Position numbers and translations under genes: made by a program
Shown here: positions 24,375 through 44,399 of the stretch, one piece after another
How the letters are laid out: each line of letters starts with the position of its first letter
How positions within the stretch are numbered: position 1 is the first letter of the stretch
Source of the DNA: Candidatus Altiarchaeota archaeon
GTDB taxonomy: Archaea; Altiarchaeota; Altiarchaeia; IMC4; SCGC-AAA252-I15
Assembly (NCBI GenBank): GCA_043813075.1
Contig: JBDRLL010000006.1
Span: 5,043-69,042, forward strand
Length of the DNA stretch: 64,000 bases
Reading direction: 5' to 3'
Notes under the pieces: generated by a model
What the model was told of the DNA's origin: nothing
Seen by the model: the letters and a program-made list of their open reading frames with translations, nothing else
Databases searched by the model: none

Positions 24375-25616
24375 TTATGTTGAGGATGATGAGGATGAGG
24401 ATGTGGATATGACGTATGAACTTGACGTGCTTGATGTGGTGGCTGTGGTGCTGGTAGTAATGCTCGTCGTAGTGGTGATTATGCAGTTAGGACCGTACAA
24501 TCCAAGCGAGACCTTGTAGCCTCCCGGACAGTATTCCCTCCCCCAGAAGCTCTCGTTATAGCAGTCGACCATGATGTGGTAGGTGCCTGCCATCAGATTA
24601 CTGACTGCGCAGGACTCGGGCTCGCCCAGGAAACCCAAGTCTATAGGATGCCTAGGGCAGTCCCATTCAGGCCACTCGTATGGCCATATGCCGTAGTATA
24701 TGCGGGGGCAGAATTCTGGCGTCCAGTTCACGTACAAGTCATAGTCGCTGTCCGCGTCAGGCTGCATTATCACCTCGACGTCACAGACACTACCTTCAGG
24801 TATTGTGAAGAAGTGGTAGTTGTAATCGTCGCCGTGGGTATTGTACTCCCGTTCACTGTCCTCAAGCCTGCATCCACCGTACACTGGCGGGCAATCCCAG
24901 CAATTCGGGACGGTAGTTGAAGTCGAAGTTGTAGTGGTGCTGGTAGTGGTTGTTGAAGTGGACGTGGTAGTCGTGGTGGTCGGCGCTGGCCCGAACTCAT
25001 TCCACGAGACGTCAAACTCCACGGTGGAAAGCTTCTGTCCTGCCGGAACCCGTATGAAAAACAAGTCTTCAACAATGTCGGGAGGGTCATAAACAAGGTC
25101 TAGGTCCCTGTGCAGGATAGGACACCCGCGGATCCTGCACACGTAATCAATGCTCCAGGTGAAGTTCTCGAGAAGCCATGCCCTAGCAACCCATCCCTCG
25201 CGCGGGGTGTCGGCCATGTAGCCGGAAAGCAGGCGGGAGGCGCTAGCCTCATCCCCAGAATCCTTCTCGCTAGTCCTGGTGCCCCCTGAGTCGTAGATGA
25301 CTTGGCTGACGCTGACACCAGCAATCTCAAGACGGTACCCCATGTTCGGGGGGACCATGTTGTCCAAATACTCTCGAGTCAGATTCCCTGCGCCTGAGAC
25401 ATTGCCGGAAGAGTAGAGGAAACCAATCTCCTCGAGAACACCCTTCTTGTTGAGGGTCTCGATAGAATCCTGCGCCACGCCATGAGCCTTCTGGAAGGCG
25501 GCCTTCTCCACCTTACTGGCCCTGAAGTAATGTAGGCCTATGAATCCAGCCATTATGAAAAGCACCATGGAGAGCGATATCAACGCATCCCACGTGAGGA
25601 TATACCCTTTCTTCAT
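24375..25616 (-). CDS. type IV pilin-like protein with PPC-like domain
   Basis: MKKG/YILTWDAL plus hydrophobic helix; Thr linker; SDYDLYV...GEPESC...AGTYHIMV. Confidence 0.7.
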   Translation of the reverse strand: MKKGYILTWDALISLSMVLFIMAGFIGLHYFRASKVEKAAFQKAHGVAQDSIETLNKKGVLEEIGFLYSSGNVSGAGNLTREYLDNMVPPNMGYRLEIAGVSVSQVIYDSGGTRTSEKDSGDEASASRLLSGYMADTPREGWVARAWLLENFTWSIDYVCRIRGCPILHRDLDLVYDPPDIVEDLFFIRVPAGQKLSTVEFDVSWNEFGPAPTTTTTTSTSTTTTSTTTTSTSTTVPNCWDCPPVYGGCRLEDSEREYNTHGDDYNYHFFTIPEGSVCDVEVIMQPDADSDYDLYVNWTPEFCPRIYYGIWPYEWPEWDCPRHPIDLGFLGEPESCAVSNLMAGTYHIMVDCYNESFWGREYCPGGYKVSLGLYGPNCIITTTTSITTSTTATTSSTSSSYVISTSSSSSSST

Positions 25617-25647
25617 TATCTAAGAAACTATTATCCCTAGCCGTTTA

Positions 25648-27405
25648 TTAGACTACCTCGGGTTTTGGGTACACTAGTATGACGCGCAGGTATCCTACAT
25701 CTATGTAGTCTGCGGCAATGCGGCTCCACCTGCCCAACCCGGGGCTGGTTGAATTCTCCCTGCCTACCGCGTAATAACAGTACCGGCCTTCAGCATACTC
25801 CTTCGTGGTCCAGATGTGCTTGCAGTTCTTATCGCCGGGACATATCATCACGTCAGTCCTCCAGGGGATGTCAGGTGCGTCGGTGAACGGGTTCGTTATC
25901 TCCCCCAATTCGAAGTCGTTGGCGGACTTGCCGGAAGGATGAGCGGCATAATCCAGACAATCGAACTTAGGCTTACCTATGACACTCGAGAATGGGAAGA
26001 ATACTCCGTCACTCACGACAAGCTTCTCCATGCCGTCAGTGGCAGTGCCGCTCACGTTAAGGAAGATTGTCTCATCAACCTTGGCCAGCTTGCCCCAAGA
26101 GTCGTTGTATGCCATTATGGTGACAGCCAGGTCACCGTAGATGCACCTGTTGTTGTAGCAGACTTCACAACCCTCCCAGCAGGTGGAAGAGTCGACGCAA
26201 TACTCCCCGCAATCACCCTTCTCACATATGTAGGTGGCGGGGTCTCCGTCCACCTCAACGGGGTAGACGTCGCAGTAGCGGCAGCCAAGCTCGCATTCCT
26301 CGATAGTAGGGTCTTCAGCACTGCAGTTCTTGCCGCAGTCACCCTGCTCGCAGCGGAAACCCGCTTGGATTGATGTATTGCAGTAGAGGCATCTTTCCTC
26401 GCACTCCTCGTAATAGTCGAACTCGTCGCAAGACGCGCCGCAAGATCCATTCGGCTCGCACGTGTATACATCACGGCCCAGCCGGTAGTCATACTGCTGC
26501 CAGCAGTACTCGCACTCGAACTCCTCCTCGTTAAGCCAGATATCCATCTCACACTCTTCAGGGAATCCTCTAGGATGCCAGCAAGGCAGTCCGCACGTAT
26601 CATCCTCCTTCTTCTCCTCGCACTTGCCGCCCGGCCCTGAGACGGAGAGGTTACACCACTTGCAGGGATTCGGACCCTCATCCTCGAGATAGTCGCAGTC
26701 CTCGTCAGCCTCACAGTATTCATCGCACTTGCCGGATGGAACGCACCTCTGGTCCTGGTTGCAGTACGGGCACGCGCTATCCTGCATCTCCTCCTCGCAT
26801 ATGATGGAGAAGCTTCCGGGATCAGGGCAGAACATGTAGCATACGGACACCGGCAGGCTCGTTGTAGTGAGGAACGGCGGGACGCTCCATGGCTCCTCTA
26901 TGTGGCCGTAGAGCTTGCCCACACTCTCAAGCTCGCTGCCGGAGACTGTGTTTACGTAGTTGACGACAACGTCCGCGTCATAGTAGTCCCCTATACGGTA
27001 ATTGTTTTCAATGGACTGGCCTATGGCACAGCTGGATTCTATGACAACTGAGTCCTGTGGGTTTATCACCACTTCTTCAGCCGGGACTGGAGTGCACTCG
27101 ACGATGCCGAAAGACACGTTAACCCCGTAGATGGGTATCCTAACGGGAACGTCGCCCTCATTCTTTACTTTAACGTATATCGAGTTGTTCTGGGCTATAA
27201 CCCAGTCGACTGGGATGACCTGTGAGAACCCAGCCCAACCCCTCCGCTGGATGAGAGGCTTTAAAACGCCAGTCTGCCAGAGGAGGACCAGCGTTATGGA
27301 GAGGAAAAGGATTACTAGGGAAAACACTAGCAGATTTTCTACAGATATCTGGCCTTTAAACCCCTTAACCCTATTAGATGAACGCACAAGCATCCTTTTT
27401 AACAC
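25648..27405 (-). CDS. type IV pilin-like protein with six six-Cys modules
   Basis: KG/QISVE plus hydrophobic helix; 36 Cys in six C-x3-C-xn-C-xn-C-x2-C-xn-C units. The start may be ATG 27393. Confidence 0.75.
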   Translation of the reverse strand: MLKRMLVRSSNRVKGFKGQISVENLLVFSLVILFLSITLVLLWQTGVLKPLIQRRGWAGFSQVIPVDWVIAQNNSIYVKVKNEGDVPVRIPIYGVNVSFGIVECTPVPAEEVVINPQDSVVIESSCAIGQSIENNYRIGDYYDADVVVNYVNTVSGSELESVGKLYGHIEEPWSVPPFLTTTSLPVSVCYMFCPDPGSFSIICEEEMQDSACPYCNQDQRCVPSGKCDEYCEADEDCDYLEDEGPNPCKWCNLSVSGPGGKCEEKKEDDTCGLPCWHPRGFPEECEMDIWLNEEEFECEYCWQQYDYRLGRDVYTCEPNGSCGASCDEFDYYEECEERCLYCNTSIQAGFRCEQGDCGKNCSAEDPTIEECELGCRYCDVYPVEVDGDPATYICEKGDCGEYCVDSSTCWEGCEVCYNNRCIYGDLAVTIMAYNDSWGKLAKVDETIFLNVSGTATDGMEKLVVSDGVFFPFSSVIGKPKFDCLDYAAHPSGKSANDFELGEITNPFTDAPDIPWRTDVMICPGDKNCKHIWTTKEYAEGRYCYYAVGRENSTSPGLGRWSRIAADYIDVGYLRVILVYPKPEVV

Positions 27406-28380: not shown

Positions 28381-30684
28381 ATGAGTGGTAAATCAGAGAC
28401 AAAAGAGAAAAAGACTGCTAAGCACAAGCAGGATAAGAAATTCAAGGTGGACATAAAATACGGTGGATATGACCTGAAGTTCAACATAAAGCCAACACCA
28501 CAACTGATATCCAACATACTCGTATTCCTTATAATATACTGGTACCTGCTCTCCATATTCACCCCCAAACTGATGCTGTTGGAGACCATAACAACAGGCG
28601 GGGACACGGCCTCACACTACTACCCGACTAAATTCCTCAAGGAAGAGCTCATACCAAAGGGGCATATAATCGGCTGGCTGCCGGGATGGTACGGTGGTAT
28701 GCCATTGTTCCAGTTCTATTTCCCAGTCCTATTCGTCCTGATAGCATTCATGAGCTACGTGATACCGCTACAGATAGCCTTCAAGATTGTGAGCGCGTTA
28801 GGGGTGTTCCTGCTGCCGTTAACCGCGTTCCTTGCCATGAGAGTCATGAAATTCAGGTATCCGATGCCCATCATAGCCGCCATATTCACGATGCCGTTCC
28901 TATTCATGGAGTCGCACACGATGTGGGGCGGCAACATACCGAGCACGCTAGCTGGAGAATTCACTTACGGCTGCAGCATGTCGCTGATGGTGCTGCTGCT
29001 TGCAATGATATACAGGGGGCTTGAGGAGGACAAATGGATAATCAGGAACGCTGTTTTCATGGCCATAGTCTGCTTGACGCACGTTTACACGATAATATTC
29101 ACTGTCGCCTCGATACCATACCTTTATTTCACTAGGAACGTCAAGGAGTTAAAAAGGAGGATAGTGTACTCCCTGAAAGTCTACCCCCTGGCAATCATGC
29201 TGACAGGATTCTGGCTTATCCCGCTTCTCGCAAGACACAAGTGGACTGCAGTATACGACTTCGTGTGGGACATCACGGAAGAGGTGTTCCCGGTGCTCCT
29301 GTATCCGTTCTTCCTTTTCATGATTATTGGGATACACATGATGATCATAAACCAGGATAAGAGGGTGGGGTTCATGTTCTTCTCGATAATAGCGTCATTA
29401 CTGTTGTTCAAGTTCGGGAGCCTGCTTGGCGCCGGAATGGTTGACATAAGGTTCCTCCCGTTCACATACCTCTACACCCTCCTCATCGCAGCATACGGGA
29501 TGTACACTTTGGTGAAGAATGTTGAGGGGGCCTGGATTCTGCCGCTCATAATCGTCTTCCTAACCCTATTTTGGATAAACGAGTACAACGTAAGCGTCCC
29601 CAATGAAGGAGTCACCATGGACTTCATAGTGCAGGAACTCAAAAACTTCAGGTATCATGGCTTCACACCCTCATGGGTGAAGTGGAACTACGACGGCTTC
29701 GAGAGGAAGATGCGGTGGGCAGAGTTCAAGGAGGTGAACGACTACCTGACTGGGACATACAATGACCCTAGAGTAAAGTTCGAGCACAACGACCACCACA
29801 ACGAGGCGGGAACGGTCAGGGCCTACGAGTCCGTCCCACTCTTCGCTGGAAGGTCGATACTTGAGGGGTTGTACATGCAGTCGATACACACTTCAGTGTT
29901 CTCGTTCCTCATTCAGGCAGAAGTCTCAAAACAACAGTCATGCCCCTACTGGCACCGGTTCCCGTGCACGCATTTTGACATAGAAAACGGGACCAAACAC
30001 ATGCTAATGTTCAACGTGCGGCACATAATAGTCAGGAGCGACATGCTGAAGGAGGCGCTGCGGGAGAGAGAAGACTACAAGATGGTCTTGGAGACAGACA
30101 ACCATGAGATATGGGAGCTGACTGATAACACAGGCCATTATGTGACAGTGCCCCAGTATGAGCCGGTGCTCTTCAAGACAGACACCTGGCTGAATGACTC
30201 ATACAACTGGTTCAGGAACATGAGCCTGATAGACACGCCGCTCGTGTTTGTGGAGGAGATAGAGCCGGAGGACGCAGTATACTTCAGAAACGTCAAGGAA
30301 GATGGGGATTGGAGGGACATCCCGAAGGTGCCATTAGACAATAACTGCAACATAGAGGAGAAGCTGACTGCGGACGAGATATGGTTCAAGACGGACTGCG
30401 TGGGCAAACCACACATAATAAGCGTGTCCTACTACCCTAGCTGGAGGCCGGTCGGGGCAGATAAAGTGTATCTGATATCGCCTTCATTCATGATGGTAAT
30501 ACCAGAGCAGGAGGAGGTTAGGCTTGTGTACAGTAAGCTTCCGGAGGACTGGATAGGGCTTTTACTGAGTTTCACTGGATTTTTGACGGTATCCTGTGTC
30601 ATAGCATACTACGGTAATGGTAGGGTGAGGAAGATGATTGACGGTAGCATGCTGGGTGACGCATACAGGAAGTACGCTTCCTAG
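28381..30684 (+). CDS. GT-C-type membrane protein (PTPS-related/YfhO-like)
   Basis: TTGGDTASH, WLPGWYGGMPLFQFYFP, GGNIPSTLAGEF, many TM segments, C-terminal SYYPSW. Confidence 0.8.
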   Translation: MSGKSETKEKKTAKHKQDKKFKVDIKYGGYDLKFNIKPTPQLISNILVFLIIYWYLLSIFTPKLMLLETITTGGDTASHYYPTKFLKEELIPKGHIIGWLPGWYGGMPLFQFYFPVLFVLIAFMSYVIPLQIAFKIVSALGVFLLPLTAFLAMRVMKFRYPMPIIAAIFTMPFLFMESHTMWGGNIPSTLAGEFTYGCSMSLMVLLLAMIYRGLEEDKWIIRNAVFMAIVCLTHVYTIIFTVASIPYLYFTRNVKELKRRIVYSLKVYPLAIMLTGFWLIPLLARHKWTAVYDFVWDITEEVFPVLLYPFFLFMIIGIHMMIINQDKRVGFMFFSIIASLLLFKFGSLLGAGMVDIRFLPFTYLYTLLIAAYGMYTLVKNVEGAWILPLIIVFLTLFWINEYNVSVPNEGVTMDFIVQELKNFRYHGFTPSWVKWNYDGFERKMRWAEFKEVNDYLTGTYNDPRVKFEHNDHHNEAGTVRAYESVPLFAGRSILEGLYMQSIHTSVFSFLIQAEVSKQQSCPYWHRFPCTHFDIENGTKHMLMFNVRHIIVRSDMLKEALREREDYKMVLETDNHEIWELTDNTGHYVTVPQYEPVLFKTDTWLNDSYNWFRNMSLIDTPLVFVEEIEPEDAVYFRNVKEDGDWRDIPKVPLDNNCNIEEKLTADEIWFKTDCVGKPHIISVSYYPSWRPVGADKVYLISPSFMMVIPEQEEVRLVYSKLPEDWIGLLLSFTGFLTVSCVIAYYGNGRVRKMIDGSMLGDAYRKYAS

Positions 30685-31373
30685 CGGACTTTAAGCCAGA
30701 GGGAAACCAGGTTTTTGAAGCGGTAGAATATCTCGTTCACTAGGTTGAATTTGCTTCCCCTAGTGTCATTGCAGAAGACGGGTATCTCAACAACGCTGCC
30801 GCCATCCTTCTTTACGTGATAAACCAGTTCGATCACGTAGGATGAGCCGTGGTCTATGTCCTTCACGTAGGGGAGTATGTCAGACCTAACCCAACCCTTG
30901 GTGCCTATGCTATAGTCGCGGTAGTCCAGCCCCAGCAGCGCTCGGACCAGCTGTATGAATACGCCGCTTATGAATGTCCTGTAAGCCTTCCTCTCCTGCT
31001 TCCCCAGGTACTTTGAGCCTATGACCACGCTATTATCATCTAGCTTGGAGACGCAGTCTTTTATGAAGCTGAGGTCTGAAGATAGATCCATGTCGAGGGA
31101 TACAAGCTTCTCTGAGGATGCTGCGTCAACCATCTTGGTGAAGGCGTAGCCTACGCCACGACGGGGTATGAATAGGAACCTGAATCTGCCGGGATACCTT
31201 TCCTCGAGAACACGCCCCAATTCCACCGTACGGTCCGTGGAACCGTTGCTGCATACTATAACCTCGTATTCGCCAATCTTCGCCTTATCAAGGTATTTTA
31301 TCAGCTTGCCGGTGTTTTCAACGAGCAGCTCCTCCTCATTGTAGACAGGTATCATAACGGAAAAGTCCATCAT
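30681..31373 (-). CDS. GT2 glycosyltransferase
   Basis: IPVYNEE, NGSTDRT, SLDMDLS. Confidence 0.88.
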   Translation of the reverse strand: MMDFSVMIPVYNEEELLVENTGKLIKYLDKAKIGEYEVIVCSNGSTDRTVELGRVLEERYPGRFRFLFIPRRGVGYAFTKMVDAASSEKLVSLDMDLSSDLSFIKDCVSKLDDNSVVIGSKYLGKQERKAYRTFISGVFIQLVRALLGLDYRDYSIGTKGWVRSDILPYVKDIDHGSSYVIELVYHVKKDGGSVVEIPVFCNDTRGSKFNLVNEIFYRFKNLVSLWLKVR

Positions 31374-31412
31374 TAGATTAAATTAAAAGCACAGGCATAA
31401 TTAAATCTTAAA

Positions 31413-31859
31413 GTGACCGGGAAAAAGGCTAAGAACGCTGGGAAGGGGTTTAGTGCGCGTGGAAAAGGCATTGCCCATAGGAGACTAGCGTATGCCATTA
31501 TTGTTATCATAGCGTACTCTCTGCCAGCATACCTGTTGTATGAGAACTACTCGAAGAACGACAAGAGCAGTATGGACGGCGGGTGGGGGTACGGCACCGG
31601 AGTGTTCGAGGCCCTTGACGAGGATGCGCTGATACTTAGCAGATGGTCGGCTTACACCCTCCTCAACCACTTCAAGTACGTGGTGTATGATAGGGGGGAT
31701 GTGACCATACTTTCGAGGCGTAAGATCGACTGGCTTAAGGAGGTTGACAGGAACTATGGTGAGAAGCCAGTATACTTGACTGAGATGGATGATAAGGTCT
31801 CTGAGAAATACGTTCTAGAGAGGGTCGGTGGGATATATCATGTCAAGAAAAGGAAATAG
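31413..31859 (+). CDS. C-terminal module of a DUF2723/TMEM260-like transferase (split gene)
   Basis: TM plus LPAYLLYENYSKNDKS...YG...ALDEDALILSRW.....L.HFKYV...RGDV...KPVYL, matching the usual C-terminal part of DUF2723 proteins. Confidence 0.65.
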   Translation: MTGKKAKNAGKGFSARGKGIAHRRLAYAIIVIIAYSLPAYLLYENYSKNDKSSMDGGWGYGTGVFEALDEDALILSRWSAYTLLNHFKYVVYDRGDVTILSRRKIDWLKEVDRNYGEKPVYLTEMDDKVSEKYVLERVGGIYHVKKRK

Positions 31860-32931
31860 GTGGGGGGGTGTCACTCCAGGGCTTATCGTATTCACAACCA
31901 CGCTAGTCGTGTATCTTAGCACAGTGTCTACAAACGTTGGTAGGGGGGATACGGGAGAATTCCAGACGCTCCCATATGTGTTCGGCATAGCGCATCCAAC
32001 GGGATACCCCACATACATCCTACTGGGTAGCGTATTCAGATGGATTCCGCTAGGTTCTTATGCATACAGGATTAACCTCATGTCCGCATTCTTCGGGTCG
32101 GTTACCGCATACCTCCTTTACAGGATTGTAATGAAGTACGCGGAAAACGTGTATGCCGCTTCAGCCGCCGCCCTAACCCTCGCCTTCAGCAAGCTATACT
32201 GGAGCCAGTCGGTCATAGCGGAAGCATATATCCTGAACGCATTCTTCCTCGTCTCATGCCTACTACTACTGCTTGAATGGAGGGATGGGGGAGACAACAG
32301 ACTACTCTACGCGTTTAGCATACTATATGGCATTGGCTTAGGCAACCACATGTCCCTCGCACTCTACGCCCCGGCCTACGCATTCATAATACTTAGGAGG
32401 GATTGGAGGGTGCTGCTTGACGGCAGATTATTGAAGATGTTCGCCTTATTCGCCATAGGAGCCTCAGTCTACGCCTACATCCTAATACGCGACAACCCCG
32501 GGACCCCGATGAACTACATACACGAGTTCTCGGTGGAACACGGGACGTTCAACTACTCCGAAAACGCCGTTAAAGACAGGTTCGAGAGGCTTGGCTGGAT
32601 GGTCAAGGGACGGCAGTTCAACGCAGACGAACTGACATACAAGAGGCTTACTAGCACCATGGAAGAGCAGAGACTACGGGAGTCATGGGGAAGGATTATG
32701 GAGCAGATAACAGTCTTCGGGGCTATACTCTGCATCATTGGAGTCTCACGCCTCTTCATGAAGGACAAGCCGATGCTGGCTGCAACAATCATCTTCTTCA
32801 CGCTAAACACCATGAGGTTTGGTGGTGGAATGTACGAGCACAGCATACCTTCAGTGATAATATGCTGCATATGGATAGGATTCGGTGTTGAACAAACGTC
32901 AGAATACGTGCGTCAGAGAGTGCTGGTGTAG
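31840..32931 (+). CDS. N-terminal DUF2723/TMEM260-like GT-C domain (split gene)
   Basis: GDTGEFQ...GIAHPTGYPTY, RINLMSA, WSQSVIAEAY, GLGNH; ends just after IPS...IWIGFG. Confidence 0.85.
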   Translation: MSRKGNRWGGVTPGLIVFTTTLVVYLSTVSTNVGRGDTGEFQTLPYVFGIAHPTGYPTYILLGSVFRWIPLGSYAYRINLMSAFFGSVTAYLLYRIVMKYAENVYAASAAALTLAFSKLYWSQSVIAEAYILNAFFLVSCLLLLLEWRDGGDNRLLYAFSILYGIGLGNHMSLALYAPAYAFIILRRDWRVLLDGRLLKMFALFAIGASVYAYILIRDNPGTPMNYIHEFSVEHGTFNYSENAVKDRFERLGWMVKGRQFNADELTYKRLTSTMEEQRLRESWGRIMEQITVFGAILCIIGVSRLFMKDKPMLAATIIFFTLNTMRFGGGMYEHSIPSVIICCIWIGFGVEQTSEYVRQRVLV

Positions 32932-34475
32932 TTCACGTGCCTGAACAGCTGGGCGTACCTTCGCTCGTCTATAATCTCGTAATCACCGCTCTCATTGACT
33001 GTATACACGGACTCCAGCTCATTGCGTACGAGACGCGTGTCAAGCAGGACGAAATCCACGTCCGTGTCCGGATGCACTCCACTATCCTTGATGCCGTATA
33101 GGTTCACCCTAAACGGGTTGGGGAACATGTAGACACGCTCCCTGTGGGTCAGATGGGACACAAAGTTGTAGGATGCCGAGACCCTAGCATCTTCTGGAAT
33201 CAACTCCATCAACTCCAACACCTCAGCATACTCCCCATGAGGCCTGCCAAGCTTGGTTATGGTATCCCAAGTCATCTCATAGTTGGATATCTTCGCTTCT
33301 CCAGGACCTATCTCCTCGTTCCCTATGAGGGTGAACACAACGAGTACAAGCAGGAGTCCGTATACACTCCATTTCCGTGACTTGTATCTGGCGACCCCGT
33401 TAATGATGGATATGAAGACGAATGGTATTATGGGGGTGACGTAGTGGAACCTGATTTCATGGGCGTATGACCAGTCGGTGATCAAGTTGAGGTACAGGGA
33501 GGCTGCCGCTGCCATGGACGGCAGGTCCAGGAAGAAGAGGAATCCGGTTGGAAATAGGACGTCCATGAAGTACTTGTAGTTCTTTGCTGTAACGACTTTG
33601 TTGAACATGAAGAATGGGTTGGTCAGGCTCTTGACCTTGTCCATCGTGGTCTTCCCGAAAGACCCGAGAGTCCTGCCGGTGTAGAACGCACCCTCAGTAT
33701 TGAAGTAGGGGAAGAAGACGTGCATCACTAGCAGCACCCATATTAGTGACGTTGCCGTCGTGACCGCGCCGACACGCTTGTCTATCTTGAAGAATATGTA
33801 TATGCCGAAGAGTATGTAGCTGAATGATATCTCCTCCTTGCATATGAGCGAGAAGAAATACATCGCATAGTATGCGCGGAACCTCCTGTGCATTAGAAAC
33901 CAGTAGCCGAAAAGCGTCAGGGGGACCATGAAGCTCTCATAATGGTAGCCTTGGTCGAGGTTAGAGTAGTGGACTGCGGGATAGAAGATGTATGCGAACG
34001 AGAATACCAGCGGAATCCAATAGCTGTCGAACTTATCCCTCGCAATAAGGTACACTGGTATGGCCCCGGCAGCCAGCACGAGAGTGTGCAGGAGTATCAG
34101 GGCGCGCACGTCATTCCAGAGCCAGTATAACGGGGCCACGAAGATGTGTATGAAAGAAGTGTGGTCTCCGAAGAAGTGAAGCCCCCTGGTCGTAAGGTAG
34201 GGTGTTTTAAAGCGGGATAAAAGCCAGATGCCCTGGTCAGGTATCCCCAAATCGAAGTTCCCATACCAGAACATGTTGTACTGGTTCAATACCGTGAAAC
34301 AGAATACCAGCAGGTATAGACCGATCATGAGCGCCAGGATCATATAAGGAACTATCCTCGAACCCTTAATCCACCCACACGCAAGTGAGGCCTTATTCAA
34401 AATAGGCTTAAAACCCAATTTTTTCGCGATCCCAATCCTAGAGCTCTTCTTTGCCTTACGTCCCTTAGAAGCCAC
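32913..34475 (-). CDS. DUF2079 GT-C-like membrane protein
   Basis: FDLGIPDQGIW, HFFGDHTS, KEE, FHYVTPIIPF, HLTHRERVYMFPNP; likely GTG start at 34475. Confidence 0.82.
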   Translation of the reverse strand: MASKGRKAKKSSRIGIAKKLGFKPILNKASLACGWIKGSRIVPYMILALMIGLYLLVFCFTVLNQYNMFWYGNFDLGIPDQGIWLLSRFKTPYLTTRGLHFFGDHTSFIHIFVAPLYWLWNDVRALILLHTLVLAAGAIPVYLIARDKFDSYWIPLVFSFAYIFYPAVHYSNLDQGYHYESFMVPLTLFGYWFLMHRRFRAYYAMYFFSLICKEEISFSYILFGIYIFFKIDKRVGAVTTATSLIWVLLVMHVFFPYFNTEGAFYTGRTLGSFGKTTMDKVKSLTNPFFMFNKVVTAKNYKYFMDVLFPTGFLFFLDLPSMAAAASLYLNLITDWSYAHEIRFHYVTPIIPFVFISIINGVARYKSRKWSVYGLLLVLVVFTLIGNEEIGPGEAKISNYEMTWDTITKLGRPHGEYAEVLELMELIPEDARVSASYNFVSHLTHRERVYMFPNPFRVNLYGIKDSGVHPDTDVDFVLLDTRLVRNELESVYTVNESGDYEIIDERRYAQLFRHVNYTSTL

Positions 34476-34515
34476 TTTAGAAACAATATTTACATTAACA
34501 ACATTAATATTAAGC

Positions 34516-35232
34516 ATGACCCGGGTTTTAGTGATGCTGCCCACATACAATGAGGCTGAGAACATAGGGAGCATTATAGGAGACATCCTGGAGCAAGGAG
34601 AGGATGTGGACGTGCTGGTTGTGGACGACTCTTCGCCGGACGGAACATGGAGGATAGTGGAGGGGATTTCATCAGAGAACTCCAGGGTCAATCTACTGAA
34701 GCGCGAGGGAAAGAGGGGTAGGGGCCTGGCGGGGGTGGAGGGATACAAGTACGGTATTGAGAACAAGTACGATGCCATACTTGAGATGGACGCGGACTAC
34801 AGCCATGACCCGGAGCACATACCTGAACTCCTTAAAGCCCTTGAAGACGCAGACGTCGTTCTTGGGTCTAGGCTGGTGGAAGGCGGGATGGAGACGGGTA
34901 GACCGTGGATGCGGAGGATTATCACAAAACTCGCAAACACATATATAAGGCTGATGCTGGGGTTGGACGTGAGGGACTGCAATTCCGGATTCAGATGCTT
35001 CAAACGCGAGGTGCTTGAGGCCATAAAGCCGGAGACCATAACGTCTGAGGGACCTGGCATAGTGCAGGAGGCACTTTTCAAGGCCCACTTAAAAGGATTC
35101 AGGATAAGGGAGGTCCCCATACGATTCAAAGACAGGGTTGCCGGGGAATCCAAGCTGGGTGTAGGCGCTTTAATTAGCGGATACACTTTAATATTAAAGT
35201 TGAAGTTTCATAGTATGTTAGGTGGTGATTGA
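34516..35232 (+). CDS. polyprenol/dolichol-phosphate mannose synthase-like GT2
   Basis: LPTYNEAENI, VDDSSPDGT, EMDADYSHDP, DCNSGFR, EVPIRFKDR..GESK. Confidence 0.9.
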   Translation: MTRVLVMLPTYNEAENIGSIIGDILEQGEDVDVLVVDDSSPDGTWRIVEGISSENSRVNLLKREGKRGRGLAGVEGYKYGIENKYDAILEMDADYSHDPEHIPELLKALEDADVVLGSRLVEGGMETGRPWMRRIITKLANTYIRLMLGLDVRDCNSGFRCFKREVLEAIKPETITSEGPGIVQEALFKAHLKGFRIREVPIRFKDRVAGESKLGVGALISGYTLILKLKFHSMLGGD

Positions 35233-36172
35233 AATAAGGGTTCTGGTCACAGGCGCAAGCGGCTTCATAGGCTCCCACCTATGCCGGCTACTTCTTGAGG
35301 AAGGATGTGAAGTCTACGCCTCGTACCTTTATGACGAGGAATTGTACAGGATAAACGACATCAAGGAGGAGGTCACTATGATGAAGTGCGATGTCGCTGA
35401 CAGAAACAGGGTGGAAGCCGCGATAGAGGAGGCGGAGCCGGAAGTGGTCTACCACCTGGCAGCCCAGAGCTTCCCGACGGTATCCTGGGAGAAGCCGGCT
35501 GAAACACTTAGGACTAACGCTGAAGGCACTGTCAACATATTCGAGTCGGTGATGAGGCAAGACCTGGACTCGAGGATAATAGTAGCGTGCTCGAGCGCGG
35601 AATACGGGCTGGTGAGGGAAGATGAAGTCCCAGTCAACGAGGAACACACCCTCCTGCCACTGCACCCGTATGGGGTAAGCAAGGTGGCGCAGGACCTTCT
35701 GGCATACCAGTACCATAAGAACCACGGCGTGAAGACGGTCAGGCTTAGGGTATTCAACACCACGGGCCCCAGCAAGACCAATGACGTGTGCAGCGACTTC
35801 ACCCGGAGGGCTGTTGAGGCTGAGAAGAAAGGCGGTGGAGTGATGAGGGTGGGGAACCTGGAGCCCAGGAGGGATTTCACTGACGTGAGGGACATGGTGA
35901 GGGCGTTCCGCCTGTCCACCAAGCTGGCGGACAAGGGGGACGTATACAACGTGTGCTCCATGAAGGCTGTGAAAGTAAGGGAAGTGCTGGACACAATACT
36001 ATCTCTGACAGAGAACGTCACCTCCGAGATTGATGAAGCACTCTTAAGGCCCAGCGACGAGCCGGTGATACTGGGAGACAACACGAAAATAAGGAAGGCG
36101 TGTGGGTGGAAGCCGGAAGTGGCGTTGGATAAGACTCTTTCAGACATGATGGACTACTGGAGAGGCATGTGA
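35222..36172 (+). CDS. GDP-sugar dehydratase/reductase (Rmd/Gmd-like SDR)
   Basis: VTGASGFIG, HLAAQS, SSAEYG, PYGVSK, GNLEPRRDFTDVRD, LRPSD. Confidence 0.88.
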   Translation: MVIEIRVLVTGASGFIGSHLCRLLLEEGCEVYASYLYDEELYRINDIKEEVTMMKCDVADRNRVEAAIEEAEPEVVYHLAAQSFPTVSWEKPAETLRTNAEGTVNIFESVMRQDLDSRIIVACSSAEYGLVREDEVPVNEEHTLLPLHPYGVSKVAQDLLAYQYHKNHGVKTVRLRVFNTTGPSKTNDVCSDFTRRAVEAEKKGGGVMRVGNLEPRRDFTDVRDMVRAFRLSTKLADKGDVYNVCSMKAVKVREVLDTILSLTENVTSEIDEALLRPSDEPVILGDNTKIRKACGWKPEVALDKTLSDMMDYWRGM

Positions 36173-36173
36173 A

Positions 36174-37292
36174 CTAGACGCATAACACGCATATCTCGTC
36201 GCCTGCTATGAAGGCGTCGCAGTTGGCGTCCACATACTGGCCTATCTTCTTATGCCTGAGTTGGCATGCTGCTTGCGCTGACTGCAGGTCGCGCTGGCAG
36301 CTGCTGCCTGGAAGCACGTTACTGCAGCTAACTGGTGGTGACTGGGACTTGCAGGTGACGCACAATTCATCTCCAGGATTGAATGCATCGCAGTTGGCAT
36401 TAACAGTCTGGTCCACCACCTTGCCCTGAAGCTGGCATGAAGACTGTGCCGCCTGGAGGGTGCGCTGGCAGCTGCTGCCCTGCAGGACGCTGCTGCACTT
36501 GACTGCAGGTGACGGAGACTTGCATTTAACGCACAATTCGTCCCCTGGATTCATGCGGTCGCAGTTAGCCTGCTGGGTCTGGTCGATGACCATGTTCATA
36601 AGCTGGCATGAAGACTGTGCCGCCTGCATGTCGCGCTGGCAGCTGCTGCCTGGAAGCACCTGGTTGCAGGGCGTGAAAGGTGAAGGCGCCTTGCAAGTGA
36701 CGCAGACTTCTGGTCCGATCCTGAATGCATCACAGTCAACGGTGATTACCTGGTCGACGACCATGTTCTTAAGCCCGCACGCCGCCTGGGCTGCCTGAAG
36801 GTCGCGCTGACAGCTACTGCCTGGAAGCACCTTGCGACAGGAGGACTTTGGGGGAAGGGTTGTGGTCGTGGTTGTGGACTTACACTGCCTTAAGCCCCTG
36901 CAGTCAGGGTCCTTGCAGTCGACCAGGCCGTCACAGTCGTCGTCCGCCTTGTTAGAGCATTTTTTCCCCTTCTCGCTCCCGGATTTCTTGCAGTTGGGGT
37001 CTGCGCAGTCTATGAGTCCGTCACAGTCGTCGTCAACCCCGTTAGAGCATTTATTACGCATCTCCTTCCCCCGCATCGAGTTCTTGCATCCAGGATCCTT
37101 GCAGTCGACCAGGCCGTCGCGGTCGTCATCCACACCGTTAGAGCACTTCTTCCTGCCCTTCTCAGGACGTGACTTGCCCTTCTTGGAGGATACTGTTGAG
37201 GCAAGAGCCCAAGTCACTAGGATAAGCACCATGATGACTACAAGAGTCTTCTGGCTTGTTTTTCGGAGCCTTACATTCATAGAGGAGGACAT
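36174..37292 (-). CDS. exported Cys-rich repeat protein (three DDDxDGLxDC repeats plus four 57-aa six-Cys repeats)
   Basis: N-terminal hydrophobic helix; repeats visible at DNA level with a 171-bp period; start at 37292 or 37280. Confidence 0.8.
   Translation of the reverse strand: MSSSMNVRLRKTSQKTLVVIMVLILVTWALASTVSSKKGKSRPEKGRKKCSNGVDDDRDGLVDCKDPGCKNSMRGKEMRNKCSNGVDDDCDGLIDCADPNCKKSGSEKGKKCSNKADDDCDGLVDCKDPDCRGLRQCKSTTTTTTLPPKSSCRKVLPGSSCQRDLQAAQAACGLKNMVVDQVITVDCDAFRIGPEVCVTCKAPSPFTPCNQVLPGSSCQRDMQAAQSSCQLMNMVIDQTQQANCDRMNPGDELCVKCKSPSPAVKCSSVLQGSSCQRTLQAAQSSCQLQGKVVDQTVNANCDAFNPGDELCVTCKSQSPPVSCSNVLPGSSCQRDLQSAQAACQLRHKKIGQYVDANCDAFIAGDEICVLCV
36177..36842 (-). repeat. four-copy 171-bp coding tandem repeat
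   Basis: GGCAGCTGCTGCC-like anchors at 36296, 36467, 36638 and 36809. Confidence 0.85.
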
Positions 37293-37329
37293 TACGTAAA
37301 GATAATAGGCGTATTTAATTAAAAAAAAG

Positions 37330-39318
37330 TCAGGTGAAGCAGGGCATCCAGTCGAGTGGCGTGTCGTCTGCAACATCCGCTTCACCGAGCTTGCTGCAGT
37401 ATCCAAGGTCGCTTTCACCGGTGACTATGAAGTTGTACGTGTTCCCAGTCAAGTCCGCCAACCGCGGGTTGTTGAAGTTCACCTCACACGTCATGTTGTA
37501 GTACGTCGGATCCGCGTCAACATACTCTGTCTTGCATGCGTCAAGGAATAGGTAGTCTGTGCCATTGTCAAGGTAGAACGCCCAGTAAGTCTCCTCGTCA
37601 AAGCCGTGAGTACCAAGCCAGTATACGCTGACATCCTTGACGTCGCCGCATGTGACAGGCTCCCCGTCAACGTTAATCCAGTATATCCTGTCGATAGTAC
37701 CTCCTGGAATGCATTTCTCCTTAAGGCCTCCGGGATTGAATCCGGACAGCTCGGTGTAGGATATGCAGCCCTTTAGGAGCACGTTCCTGCTGTAGACTGC
37801 GTCGGCGATGAAGTTCATTTCTGGCGTGCAGTAGCCGGCGTAATCCTCTGCAGTGACTATAAGGTTATGGAATCCGTCGGCAGCATCCAGGTTGACGGGC
37901 ACGTTCACGTTGCATATCATGTCGTAGTTGTATGCGCGCTCAGGATCCTCGGGGGTTGTGTTCGTGCTATTGCAGGAGTCCAGATAGTGGGCTCCATCAT
38001 CCAGGAAGAAAGCCCAGTGATTGAAGTCGCTGTTATGGTTGCCATGCCATCTGACGGTGATGTCAAGGGACTTGCCGCACTGTAGGGGACGCAGCACTGT
38101 GACGTCGTCTATGACGACCACTGGATTAGCGCCGTCAAAACAATCGAATTGAGCCTCCCCGACGCATGACACGACGTGGGTGTTGGGGGACAGCGTTGTC
38201 GTCGTGGTTGTCGACACTATAGGTTCATATCGTCCGCTACTCCATATAACAACCCTCTGCTTGAATGTGTTTTTCAGTATCCTCTGTTTCCCGCTCAACA
38301 GGGTCAGGTCATCCATAGGCTCGCTGAATGACGCTGTCTTGACACTGCTGACGAAATCTGGAACCTCATCGCTCATAACGTGGTTTCCGACGATGCACTC
38401 CTTGATGCTGTTCGGGTTTCCATAGGACCAGGTATTGCTGTTTCGGGGGTCGTAGAGTGCATCAGTGGTCAGTAGGACAACGTCTATCAGGCTGTTGGGG
38501 TCTGTGTTGTCAAAGTATAGTTGTATCGAGTGTCCAGCGAATACACCGCCGACCTTGCTCCATTCAACGGAGCCTCTTAGAGTATTGAAGATGTAGAACG
38601 GCTCGCCGTCGACGACTATCTGGAGCACAGTGCTGCTGCTGAGGCCCCTAACCCATATGTGGTAGTAGCCTGGAGTCGTCTCAACAGTCTTCACGTTGTT
38701 GCCGTCATACTGCAGTTCGCTCATGAAACCGGCGGAACAACCGCGACTACATCGACTGGTCGTGTTAAACCCCCAGAATCGCTCGTCCTCAGCCTCAATC
38801 CATATGTGGGTGTCTGTGGTGTGGTTTGTTATGGTGAAGTTGAATCCGTTGAGGCATGATACTGGACGGTTATTTTCGTCGAGATGAATGCCCTGCATGC
38901 AACCAACATCTGACGTGTTGATGCACGAGTATACTATGTAGAAGTCGTATCTGCTGGAGCCGAGAAGACTCCTCCTTATATCAGTGTAATTCTCCTCCAG
39001 GTTCTTGATGAAATTCAACAGCTTATCAGGGTCGACGATACGATCCTGGAAGAAGACTCGCTCGCCGACAGGGGTTATGTCCGAAAGACCGTAGACTTTA
39101 ACCGTATCCTGCTTCCAGTCTTCAGGGTATCCGGGAGTCTTAACCAGCTGCTCGCCGACGGAGTCTGACAGCCACTGCATCTCGAATATCCTAAGGTCGC
39201 CGCTGATGTCCATTGTGACCGAATCCCAGAGGTAGATTACTATGGAGAATATGACTAGGAACAATACCGCCGAGAATGTGAGATCCCATGTGAATACCTG
39301 CCCCCTGCCCCCCCTCAA
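37330..39318 (-). CDS. type IV pilin-like protein with CBM-like and tandem Ig-like domains
   Basis: RG/QVFTWD plus hydrophobic helix, LVKTPGYPEDW, WIEAE..YHIWVRG..IDVVLLTTD..YDP, duplicated WxGxH..WAFxLD domain; likely TTG start at 39318. Confidence 0.72.
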   Translation of the reverse strand: MRGGRGQVFTWDLTFSAVLFLVIFSIVIYLWDSVTMDISGDLRIFEMQWLSDSVGEQLVKTPGYPEDWKQDTVKVYGLSDITPVGERVFFQDRIVDPDKLLNFIKNLEENYTDIRRSLLGSSRYDFYIVYSCINTSDVGCMQGIHLDENNRPVSCLNGFNFTITNHTTDTHIWIEAEDERFWGFNTTSRCSRGCSAGFMSELQYDGNNVKTVETTPGYYHIWVRGLSSSTVLQIVVDGEPFYIFNTLRGSVEWSKVGGVFAGHSIQLYFDNTDPNSLIDVVLLTTDALYDPRNSNTWSYGNPNSIKECIVGNHVMSDEVPDFVSSVKTASFSEPMDDLTLLSGKQRILKNTFKQRVVIWSSGRYEPIVSTTTTTTLSPNTHVVSCVGEAQFDCFDGANPVVVIDDVTVLRPLQCGKSLDITVRWHGNHNSDFNHWAFFLDDGAHYLDSCNSTNTTPEDPERAYNYDMICNVNVPVNLDAADGFHNLIVTAEDYAGYCTPEMNFIADAVYSRNVLLKGCISYTELSGFNPGGLKEKCIPGGTIDRIYWINVDGEPVTCGDVKDVSVYWLGTHGFDEETYWAFYLDNGTDYLFLDACKTEYVDADPTYYNMTCEVNFNNPRLADLTGNTYNFIVTGESDLGYCSKLGEADVADDTPLDWMPCFT

Positions 39319-39319
39319 C

Positions 39320-40276
39320 TTAGGGATACGTGATGCATACGTCATCGTTAGTGTTTAAAGTGATTTTACTGCCGTCAGCGTTAATCCATACCCAGTCAGT
39401 ACCCAACGGCGCTTCGAGGGGGTTAATACACATCCTGAAGCCCGTGGAGTTGAAGACAAACATTACCCCATCCAATTCTCCTGGTGTTGGGTTCCATACG
39501 CCCTCAGGCTCGACGTTCAGGCTGAACTCGCCCACATCGTCGGAGTATATGCTATCCAGATCCCCCATTATGTCGTGGAAATCCATCTTCACCACATCGT
39601 CGACCTTGTGGCGTATCACGAAGTCCAGTTGATCGGAATCCGTGTCCTCATACACATACATCAGGCTGCCGCCGTTGACGAGATGGGTTTCAGCCATGGA
39701 CGTGGAAGCGAGGTAAGCGTCGTCAGAACCGATGAAAGGAGAGACCATCACATTCAAGCCGCGGGACATGAGATTGTATCTCTCGGTGATGTAAACCCTG
39801 CCCTGACGCCTCAACACCCTCGCGTCAATGGACTCGTTGACGTGGATGCACCTCTCGCTCACACTCACATTGCAGAGTCCATTGCAATGCCGGAGAAAAC
39901 ACTCCACCCTCATCGTTGATATTGGAGCGCTGAAGTAGAGGGTCTTACCCCTCGCGAAAGCAGACCCCTTGACGAAGACTGTAGGCTGGTCTGGGAAGAA
40001 ACTCACGTTATAATCGCTGAAAGCATAAAGACGGGCTGGAATGTTGAAATACATCCAGTAGCCGTCACCCACCATGTTGACGGTGTTGATATTGTCGGCA
40101 ATAGAGGTCACAGCAAGGAGGCCATCTATGTAAACCTTGAAGTCGCTTGTTCTGACATACTTCAGGTATATAACGTAACTGGACATCATGAAGATCATGA
40201 GGAGGATTCCCATGACTGCGATAAACTCGACTGTTACTTGACTTGAATTCGACTTGCAGTGGATCATTGCAGGCAA
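39320..40276 (-). CDS. type IV pilin-like protein
   Basis: SS/QVTVEF plus hydrophobic helix, IADNINTV..VGDGY. Confidence 0.68.
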   Translation of the reverse strand: MPAMIHCKSNSSQVTVEFIAVMGILLMIFMMSSYVIYLKYVRTSDFKVYIDGLLAVTSIADNINTVNMVGDGYWMYFNIPARLYAFSDYNVSFFPDQPTVFVKGSAFARGKTLYFSAPISTMRVECFLRHCNGLCNVSVSERCIHVNESIDARVLRRQGRVYITERYNLMSRGLNVMVSPFIGSDDAYLASTSMAETHLVNGGSLMYVYEDTDSDQLDFVIRHKVDDVVKMDFHDIMGDLDSIYSDDVGEFSLNVEPEGVWNPTPGELDGVMFVFNSTGFRMCINPLEAPLGTDWVWINADGSKITLNTNDDVCITYP

Positions 40277-40283
40277 ACCATAA

Positions 40284-40712
40284 TCATATCTGGGTTACAT
40301 TAATCTCCGTGTCCGAAAGGGACTCGACCCTGAATACGTAATAACCCTCCCTAACCAGACCAGATAGATCGCCGTAGACCCTGCCTTTTGAGACGCTGTA
40401 TATGTCGGTGTAGGAGGGACCGATGCCGACGCGGACGTTGAACGTGTTATTGTTCAGGATAGAAGCTTCCTCAACATTAGGGGGTATGTATATGTTGACT
40501 TGGGTTCTGGAGGGGTGGCCGTGGACGTATATGAAGTCGGATGCGTCTCTAAGCTTCTCGACCGCACGGTAAGCGGAATCCACCCCAACCTGGGCGCTTG
40601 ACGTGGATATGAGGGTGCTCGTTACGTAGAGTATGGCCGAGAATACGGCAAGCGATAGTGCAAGCATTATCATGTATTCAAGCGATGCCTGGCCCCTTCT
40701 AAACCCGTTCAT
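40284..40712 (-). CDS. class III signal peptide (DUF361-type) pilin
   Basis: RRG/QASLEY plus hydrophobic helix; ASDFIYVHG.PS...VYIP. Confidence 0.85.
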   Translation of the reverse strand: MNGFRRGQASLEYMIMLALSLAVFSAILYVTSTLISTSSAQVGVDSAYRAVEKLRDASDFIYVHGHPSRTQVNIYIPPNVEEASILNNNTFNVRVGIGPSYTDIYSVSKGRVYGDLSGLVREGYYVFRVESLSDTEINVTQI

Positions 40713-44100: not shown

Positions 44101-44399
44101 TTATGCATCAGACCTATGATTTCATCGGCAGACTCGCTTGACTCAGCCTCCTCCTTATCCAAGCCCGTTATTTCCTCTTCATCAAGGTCTGCGTCGATAC
44201 GAGAACCAGGCTTGAATACGGTTTCACCCACTATCGTGTAATGGATTTTTATGATCTCATGGTCTTTCAGTATCTTGGCGATGTTTATGACCGTTTCCTC
44301 ATCTTCGCCGAGACGTGAGACAGCATCCTCTAGCTTTATCTCCTTAGCCTCCTTAACCAGTTCTGTGAAACGCTGTAGAACACTCTTGTCTAAAGGCAT
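41157..44399 (-). CDS. large coiled-coil protein with N-terminal winged-helix-like domain
   Basis: 77 consecutive LxxRExx-type heptads (42057-43673). No ATPase, hinge or TM motif. Confidence 0.85.
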   Translation of the reverse strand: MPLDKSVLQRFTELVKEAKEIKLEDAVSRLGEDEETVINIAKILKDHEIIKIHYTIVGETVFKPGSRIDADLDEEEITGLDKEEAESSESADEIIGLMHKRVLERRIAATKGEGESISSPIPPSDSGDGSQPDTEDRKVDLPQDDAVKEKVEEEIEKHKEQAKKRKKPPEVMRETVVQRPAPSPRVERHDRDYLQAKEEHFTGWEHRLASMQDDFIRDVHEFEAREKAIIAQEELIKVKKAELDGKEKSILDRESKLKSEKKSVEELRKELHEQKEKLDSKEEKLGGKELELGKKESELNKKSNGLDVAEKELRSLESELKGRESSVKSRESKLNDRERDVNAREGELSARVENIDDRASALDVIEEGLNARERVLSERESKLDARESSLLAKSEDLARTDSSLSAREANLAEDDKALKERERALIKKDSELDTREDSLNSRESDLKAREKILSESEKTAKSREDGLNQRDEGLSRRQSELDSNEAALKDRESVLNGRETELGKREEAVKSREERQSDKERMLGEKESNLNQREAAIKPKEKELTDRESGIKSRESELNTRNAELNKRGKALDDRENKLGEAQSRLEAREQQVNATKNALTEAEKILKERESNVGKVEGEIKSRLVLVEKREKAAEARDGELNQKFQEMKNRETVLVKRESDFSGYAADIEKKADSFTKRERLIGEREANLEKREAKIEESNATLAEREKLLNKRETNLNQRAGELEARERKINDSEQDVTLKLPELDEKEAKLSKMEAELQKRESNIVHREATIAEKEAVLGDKHFSGESDDVLKERIGEIDERERLLSEREVELGKESARLNDVRESLSSKEKTVNERLEAVIKREEEVSEKERSLHEHAPDGGESADLEDALAKRASELDAREKAISEREELFSGSVPSHDPELEGRLSKWEQELNRRSSELDKREAELSDHGTDSEFKGGLSGREHKLFDWEQRLKEKEHDLHEMEKKIRSHADMPNDASERERELSEWEERLRQKEKELQTAGKSEVKPSVGGVSEKEKVLATVLGKLHEDKKGLGQAGKDIINELEDFKSKHPDMSGEIDEVIKYVKNKLKNLG

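Follow-up and report, generated by a model that had tools for sequence, protein, structure and literature searches.

Can an enzyme that other organisms build as one membrane-embedded chain be encoded as two polypeptides, with its C-terminal part placed first on the DNA? The question is raised by a locus of a Candidatus Altiarchaeota archaeon (assembly GCA_043813075.1, contig JBDRLL010000006.1), lying in a stretch of 64,000 nt that was analysed as a whole and is here called the window, in which two overlapping open reading frames (ORFs), ORF A and, downstream of it, ORF B, resemble the C-terminal and the N-terminal parts, respectively, of glycosyltransferases of the DUF2723/TMEM260 family. The source genome is an assembly of 41 contigs, 89% complete, and the window is archaeal by gene content, with genes for TFE-alpha (PF02002) and for a radical SAM protein of wyosine formation. 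To our knowledge, enzymes with the GT-C fold, such as the oligosaccharyltransferases, the protein O-mannosyltransferases and ArnT, always consist of a single chain, which combines a membrane core, where the lipid-linked donor binds, with an outer domain responsible for the acceptor. Among the titles and abstract openings listed by a literature search, none concerned a split or permuted GT-C enzyme, which does not imply that none is in print. A preliminary description of the locus, made from the DNA letters, had proposed exactly such a case, and here we report the analysis that followed it up.

The best reference is human TMEM260, a Dol-P-Man-dependent protein O-mannosyltransferase with solved structures (9rql, 9rqm and 9rqn). 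According to a cryo-EM preprint (10.64898/2026.03.17.711096), it consists of a GT-C module made of transmembrane helices (TMH) 1-7, a variable module of TMH8-11, a luminal Rossmann-like (Rl) palm spanning residues 416-564 and a TPR domain. In the same source, D52 and H67 contact the donor mannose and the D52A mutant is inactive, while the palm, which lies on the core and gives the active-site cavity its shape, provides the catalytic base, D441, and the TPR domain recruits the acceptor peptide (10.64898/2026.03.17.711096).

Two ORFs and the parts of one enzyme

ORF B encodes the membrane core. Its product matches PF11028 (TMEM260-like, formerly DUF2723) with an E-value of 2.8e-31 and 109.1 bits against a cut-off of 24.2, and also, weakly, PMT_2; in the MAFFT alignment it starts at the natural N-terminus of the family and ends in the loop that follows the helix carrying IWIGFG, as the preliminary description had read from the IPS..IWIGFG motif. 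Residues 6-216 align with residues 21-238 of human TMEM260 (9rql_A, E 1e-22), and this alignment pairs D37 with TMEM260 D52 and H52 with H67, so that both donor-contacting residues of the human core are conserved. The two residues lie in the EL1 motifs GDTGEF (D37) and AHPTGYP (H52), their positions are invariant in a 38-sequence alignment (A3), and all six family-invariant residues are kept, together with the near-invariant ones that were checked. An AlphaFold2 model of the protein (pLDDT 89.9, pTM 0.90) gave 15 Foldseek matches at E<=1e-3, all of them GT-C proteins (STT3, PglB, AglB), followed at weaker E-values by ArnT, Pmt4, ALG and Emb; the membrane domain of ORF B, as modelled, has the GT-C fold.

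In the local copies of Pfam and NCBIfam, ORF A has no matching family, and it escapes PF11028 because that model covers the N-terminal core only. Its homology, which chance would not explain, emerged from a phmmer search against 1.84 billion representative proteins, which returned 32 matches at E<=1e-3, one being ORF A itself. Most of the others (25 of 31) are proteins of 457-1077 aa that are matched downstream of their core, from starts at residues 297-513; in the short forms P0124, P0125 and P0084, the matched ranges are 335-455 of 457, 355-478 of 481 and 362-478 of 481 residues, respectively. The protein opens with a basic tail, with 8 K/R among the first 24 residues, which is unique to ORF A; then follow, in the MAFFT alignment, one transmembrane helix, the NY..DKS motif and an alpha/beta Rossmann-like domain. 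The AlphaFold2 model (pLDDT 91) agrees, with a helix at residues 20-49 and then the succession H-E-H-E-H-E-H-E-E. At the other end, the stop codon coincides with the natural C-terminus of the unsplit short forms, the last residues being GGIYHVKKRK in ORF A vs GGIYKVFAK in the latter. No TPR domain was matched in either ORF by Pfam.

ORF A corresponds to TMH11 plus a shortened Rossmann-like palm, and in TMEM260 to TMH11 and the first part of the luminal Rl domain, with a link to residues ~405-470, the correspondence being transitive, via the unsplit relatives. A profile of ORF A and its closest stand-alone relative, P0122, had no direct match to human TMEM260 at E<=10, and the model of ORF A had no Foldseek match to solved structures at E<=1e-3. 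In the wide VIA-align comparison, the best Z was 6.0, to generic alpha/beta folds and in the tool's 'common' range; the last helix plus periplasmic domain of ArnT (Z 5.7) and the C-domain of PglB (Z 5.3) also fall in that range. PF28495 (TMEM260_2), the domain that follows the core, is a precomputed label on homologues.

The complementarity of the two products is clearest in homologues in which the parts stand in one chain. In a 711-aa archaeal homologue from a related genome, BLASTP places ORF B on residues 4-341 (E 2e-38) and residues 41-144 of ORF A on residues 360-485 (E 2e-8). The order was examined in 36 unsplit homologues picked from the match lists: ORF A matches 26 of them at E<=1e-3, and each of these 26 has its ORF B match on the N-terminal side, clear of the ORF A match; when the threshold is relaxed to E<=10, the order is ORF B then ORF A in 33 of 33, the remaining three having no ORF A match. 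Furthermore, the 363 residues of ORF B and residues 25-148 of ORF A add up to about the length of an unsplit short form, and the MAFFT alignment puts the cut between the helix carrying IWIGFG (TMH10) and the last helix (TMH11). The comparison thus bore out the expectation of complementary coverage, as well as the assignment of the upstream frame to what normally follows the core, and the motifs quoted in the preliminary description (GDTGEF, GIAHPTGYP, IPS..IWIGFG, NY..NDKS, RGDV and PVYL) are all present in the translations and aligned to motifs of the family.

It is therefore confirmed, at the level of sequence, that ORF A and ORF B represent complementary, non-overlapping parts of one DUF2723/TMEM260-like enzyme, with the C-terminal part encoded first. 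Since the termini of the unsplit forms of ~480 aa are reproduced, the C-terminus by the end of ORF A and the N-terminus by the start of ORF B, a simple frameshift within one gene is ruled out. That the two-gene, order-swapped arrangement is real we hold with high confidence.

Gene junctions, split relatives and evolution of the pair

The junction between the two genes (Table 1) has the layout expected for translational coupling. A Shine-Dalgarno-like GGTG (31827-31830) lies 9 nt before the ATG of ORF B, and its complement, CACC, is present in the 3' end of the genome's own 16S rRNA (...GGATCACCTCC); the 16S gene lies on the minus strand of contig C6 of this genome (G000), the same contig as the window, outside the latter. 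The overlap, the Shine-Dalgarno-like site and the basic tail of ORF A, all noted in the preliminary description, were thus read again in the sequence. An in-frame GTG at 31828 is an alternative start for ORF B and would give 367 aa. Two TATA-like boxes are present in the AT-rich spacer ahead of ORF A, namely ATTAAATTAAAA (31377-31388) and ATAATTAAAT (31397-31406), and the distance from each box to the start codon downstream of it is ~28-30 nt. In Archaea, a TATA box so spaced suits leaderless transcripts, and the two putative boxes may serve as promoters for such transcripts.

Table 1. Coordinates (window positions) of the ORF A-ORF B pair, its junctions and the adjoining genes.
Feature	Position	Strand	Description
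GT2 glycosyltransferase	30681-31373	-	230 aa; PF00535 4.5e-18; G001/G002 orthologues 60-63% identity
AT-rich spacer	31374-31412		39 nt between divergent starts of GT2 (-) and ORF A (+)
Insertion	31374-32912		~1.54 kb vs G001 (same genus) and G002 (same family)
ORF A	31413-31859	+	GTG start, 148 aa; TMH11 and part corresponding to the Rossmann-like domain
Shine-Dalgarno-like GGTGGGAT	31827-31834	+	within ORF A 3' end, ahead of ORF B ATG
ORF A/ORF B overlap	31840-31859	+	20 nt; ORF B in +1 frame relative to ORF A
ORF B	31840-32931	+	ATG start, 363 aa; predicted GT-C transmembrane core, equivalent of TMEM260 TMH1-10
ORF B/DUF2079 overlap	32913-32931		19 nt, convergent 3' ends of ORF B (+) and DUF2079 gene (-)
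DUF2079 membrane protein	32913-34517	-	PF09852 9.8e-56; orthologues 56-66% identity; likely start M88

Relatives with the same cut exist in other lineages. P0003, a protein of 359 aa encoded on a 3,893-bp contig, is 57% identical to ORF B over 99% and ends where ORF B ends; P0122, a stand-alone protein of 131 aa, is 45% identical to ORF A (E 2e-23) and starts at the ORF A helix. A third protein, P0004, of 536 aa and with a different C-terminal domain, has a core 47% identical to ORF B. ORF B, P0003 and P0004 share an extra insert of ~30 residues after the RD(N/T)P..MNY motif. P0122 and P0004 both come from Logan/ENA and are probably on one contig, because both list the same longest contig, of 17,956 bp. 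The genes of P0003, P0004 and P0122 were not found in our scans of metagenomes, genomes and viral contigs.

A word-indexed protein search for stand-alone A-like proteins returned only ORF A itself and P0122. Other candidates were set aside: the short phmmer matches P0140, P0146 and P0147 have no Met start and come from reads or contigs of 1-1.5 kb, which makes them likely fragments; P0128, of 215 aa, includes additional helices and represents a different cut or a miscalled start; and L023 4758-5297, in a Flavobacterium metagenome-assembled genome, encodes a 179-aa secreted-type protein that has the NHFKYVVYD word in common with ORF A by coincidence and no DUF2723 neighbour. In the ESM Atlas, the nearest clusters to ORF A are bacterial, of 146, 156, 186 and 135 aa, the last with 61% of its members labelled PF28495 (TMEM260_2), and the nearest to ORF B is a PF11028 cluster of 345 aa from Chloroflexota. 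Taken as leads only, these clusters suggest that split forms may be commoner in bacteria than the sequence searches show.

In the trees, ORF B, P0003 and P0004 form a clade with support 100 (FastTree; IQ-TREE -fast), and ORF A and P0122 form one in the A-part tree (95.7/99); both clades are separate from the archaeal paralogues, including the genome's own. P0123 is sister to ORF A and P0122 in the A-part tree (95.2/96), but the B-part tree, an intermediate one without support values, does not place it as sister of the ORF B clade; deep placement is not settled by these trees. On this evidence, the pair belongs to a deep clade distinct from the genome's two full-length, TPR-bearing paralogues. 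The codon usage of ORF A and ORF B falls at the 40th and the 27th percentile, respectively, of the 811 long ORFs of the genome, and their +1 frames score ~4 SD lower; judged from the sequence, decay of the pair is unlikely.

At the locus itself, the pair is an insertion. In G001 and G002 the stop of the DUF2079 gene and the start of the GT2 gene are 37 and ~48 nt apart, respectively, on one strand, with no A-B pair between them, and in the window A and B stand on the strand opposite to these two flanking genes. The GC content of the insertion equals that of the flanks, and no direct or inverted repeats beyond chance-size matches were found around it; with host-like GC and codons and no flanking repeats, the segment was either acquired some time ago or derived from a donor of similar composition. 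Since the locus is empty in both relatives, the pair did not arise at its present site. By these comparisons it is neither a rearrangement of a resident gene at the site nor a derivative of the two resident paralogues, which are 31-37% identical to it and belong to a separate clade.

The preliminary description attributed the arrangement to tandem duplication followed by complementary truncation. One part of this proposal agrees with the data, since a natural stop adjoining a natural start is what a tandem duplication with loss of the outer parts would leave; the other part found no support, as a search of the phylum's 61 genomes turned up neither tandem copies nor intermediates with partial deletions. 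An origin of this kind is plausible from the sequence, and fission followed by reordering is a possible alternative. In the general model of protein evolution, circular permutation arises by duplication plus deletion, or by fission plus fusion. The pair resembles the outcome of that model in having its C-terminal part upstream and the natural stop beside the natural start, as after a tandem duplicate has lost its outer parts; it departs from it in consisting of two separate genes where one permuted chain would be expected.

The surroundings form a glycosylation island (28381-36172), made up of a PTPS-related membrane protein (PF10131, 767 aa), the GT2 gene, the DUF2079 gene, a second GT2 gene and an epimerase resembling GDP-mannose dehydratase. 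The cluster is conserved at 54-70% identity in the relatives and, apart from the A-B insertion, its order and orientation are kept in G001 and, for the first three genes, in G002. The first GT2 may be a polyprenyl-phosphate-sugar donor synthase. The longest ORF for the DUF2079 protein (32913-34778, minus strand) has 87 codons upstream of M88 (34517) and overlaps the divergent second GT2 gene (34516-35232, plus strand); with the start at M88, the two divergent genes share 2 nt of their start codons, so that there is no room for a promoter between them. Beyond the island, six ORFs on the minus strand, at 24375-27405 and 36174-40712 (413, 585, 414, 671, 318 and 142 aa), remain without a Pfam match at E<=1e-5. 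With the exception of the 414-aa ORF, they have homologues in G001 or G002 at 33-74% identity, those of the 413- and 585-aa ORFs lying upstream in the G001 locus and those of the 671-, 318- and 142-aa ORFs in the G002 locus. A 1080-aa ORF at 41157-44399 (minus strand) has as its sole Pfam match RNase_Y_N (3.4e-28, although no individual stretch passes); the match probably reflects a coiled coil, and the protein is then not an RNase Y.

A proposed two-subunit enzyme and its alternatives

The interpretation that we favour, with moderate confidence, is that ORF A and ORF B encode a functional, translationally coupled, two-subunit TMEM260-like GT-C enzyme. ORF B would be the catalytic membrane core, with ten helices and with D37 and H52 in a putative donor site for a polyprenyl-phosphate sugar. 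ORF A would be a single-pass, N-in/C-out, type-II-like membrane protein, contributing the eleventh helix and an extracytoplasmic palm over the active site; its K/R-rich tail is what the positive-inside rule expects, and was counted in favour of this topology. In TMEM260, the palm covers the active site and brings the acceptor into position, and by analogy the ORF A palm may have the same role. Because the cut falls in the cytoplasmic loop between helices 10 and 11, both pieces could insert with their native topology, and would then reassemble in the membrane. Furthermore, with the stop of A 20 nt inside the start of B and the GGTG site ahead of it, coupled translation from one transcript, A then B, is probable and would set the stoichiometry of the subunits. 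The lipid-linked sugar donor may be supplied by the GT2 enzymes encoded nearby. The physical assembly of A and B, their expression, and the donor and acceptor are inferred.

This putative enzyme can be placed among known systems. With human TMEM260 it shares the GT-C core and, in the part corresponding to ORF A through the unsplit relatives, the NYS..D motif and the R-P-D-I/V strand. The human enzyme, however, has its eleven helices and Rl domain in one chain, whereas here there are two polypeptides, cut between TMH10 and TMH11 and swapped in order; and its Rl domain has 149 residues against ~100 in the Rl-like domain of ORF A, and it carries a TPR domain, which the pair lacks, ORF A ending at the C-terminus of the TPR-less short forms. 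In the same comparison, human D441 faces Ser79 in ORF A, and the pair's host is an archaeon. Closer are the unsplit prokaryotic short forms of ~457-481 aa (P0124, P0125, P0084), which have the same parts in one chain, no TPR and, like ORF A, a residue other than Asp (Ser, Asn or His) at the D441-equivalent position; these are nevertheless single genes in the natural order and are 26-35% identical to either ORF. The genome's own paralogues, L001 (634 aa) and L002 (at least 686 aa), and frames of 611-787 aa in related archaea belong to the same Pfam family and have the same order of core and second domain. Unlike the pair, these full-length DUF2723-TPR proteins have a TPR tail and the Asp of a G-D-N motif at the D441 position, and they stand in a separate clade, at 31-43% identity to ORF B.

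Several observations weigh against the two-subunit interpretation. The strongest of the alternatives to it, which we consider unlikely, holds that both genes work but not as halves, ORF B being a minimal GT-C transferase and ORF A an accessory, regulatory or specificity subunit, or a protein with a separate job. In P0004 the core is followed by an eleventh helix of its own and by a different C-terminal domain, although P0122 is probably encoded on the same contig, which suggests that the A-like protein may be an accessory subunit rather than the missing piece. (The region concerned, residues ~350-536, comprises the extra helix and a C-terminal domain of ~170 aa with no similarity to ORF A and no Pfam match.) Moreover, searches of the protein databases gave no A-like partner for P0003, and the position of the catalytic base D441 is occupied in ORF A by S79 (SRWSAY) and in P0122 by Gly, the assignment being transitive, through the alignment of P0124 to 9rql_A and through L007. 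The acceptor-side chemistry may thus differ from that of the human enzyme, and the palm may not take part in catalysis as it does there. The ESM Atlas clusters, with cores of 345 aa and A-like proteins of 135-186 aa, point the same way, as leads only. Against such an accessory role stand the A-like region following the core in the same chain in all 26 unsplit homologues with a significant match, the Rl domain of TMEM260 resting on the core and shaping the active-site cavity, and the 20-nt overlap with its Shine-Dalgarno-like site, which ties together the expression of both genes.

That the two frames are instead relics without function, left from the 3' end of one earlier gene copy and the 5' part of its neighbour and now being lost, we regard as improbable. 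Among the 61 genomes searched in the phylum, the pair was found in this one alone, the other 60 being without a stand-alone A-like frame, and the two full-length paralogues of the genome could cover the function. Nonetheless, both frames are open and start or end at natural termini, both folds are confidently predicted, and a start codon, a positive-inside tail and a TATA-like box are new acquisitions of ORF A. Also at odds with decay are the same split point recurring in other lineages at 45-57% identity, the invariant residues retained in ORF B and a codon usage typical of the host in the coding frame.

There is a small chance that the 1.5-kb segment, or the order of its parts, is an artefact, namely a chimera or misjoin in a metagenome-assembled genome. 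The assembly is incomplete and in many contigs, and public Logan contigs, from three runs of two studies, cover the region in six pieces of 151-425 nt, which leave 31304-31883 and 32837-33400 uncovered and thus bridge no junction. All six pieces are, however, 100% identical to the window, GC and codon usage match the host, both flanks continue the conserved synteny precisely and the junctions are tidy and gene-sized (the 39-nt promoter-like spacer and the overlaps of 20 and 19 nt); a misjoin within an unsplit gene, moreover, would not give ORF A a new start codon and a basic tail. Finally, a single circularly permuted polypeptide, for which ribosomes would have to shift by +1 in a programmed way where A and B overlap, is hardly credible, despite ORF B lying in the +1 frame of ORF A and a run of seven G (31862-31868) just past the ORF A stop, because in the fused chain a domain outside the membrane would run straight into an N-terminus on the cytoplasmic side, as the preliminary description had argued, and no helix would separate the two, and because ORF A stops at a natural C-terminus, ORF B has a natural N-terminus with its own ATG and Shine-Dalgarno-like site, and P0122 and P0003 are separate proteins.

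Implications of a separately encoded palm

A broader proposal, which we put forward as speculative and rather doubtful, is that the pair belongs to an old, conserved class of heteromeric GT-C enzymes with an exchangeable, separately encoded palm. In such a class, cores would pair with different palms, or would carry a domain of their own (as P0004 does) and yet recruit one, changing the acceptor specificity, and the order with the C-terminal part first would have been fixed so that the small subunit is made first.

In annotation, a pair of this kind is easily lost from view, with the 148-aa partner, which has no Pfam match, being labelled 'hypothetical' and the 363-aa core 'truncated' or 'partial DUF2723'. 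If the two-subunit interpretation is true, two modules of a GT-C enzyme would fold and insert separately and then find each other in the membrane, which would offer a natural system for testing what the palm contributes in TMEM260-type enzymes; the locus would also be a case, caught in the act, of duplication or fission permuting a membrane protein. The finding would thus be of moderate relevance to GT-C enzymology and to the evolution of membrane proteins.

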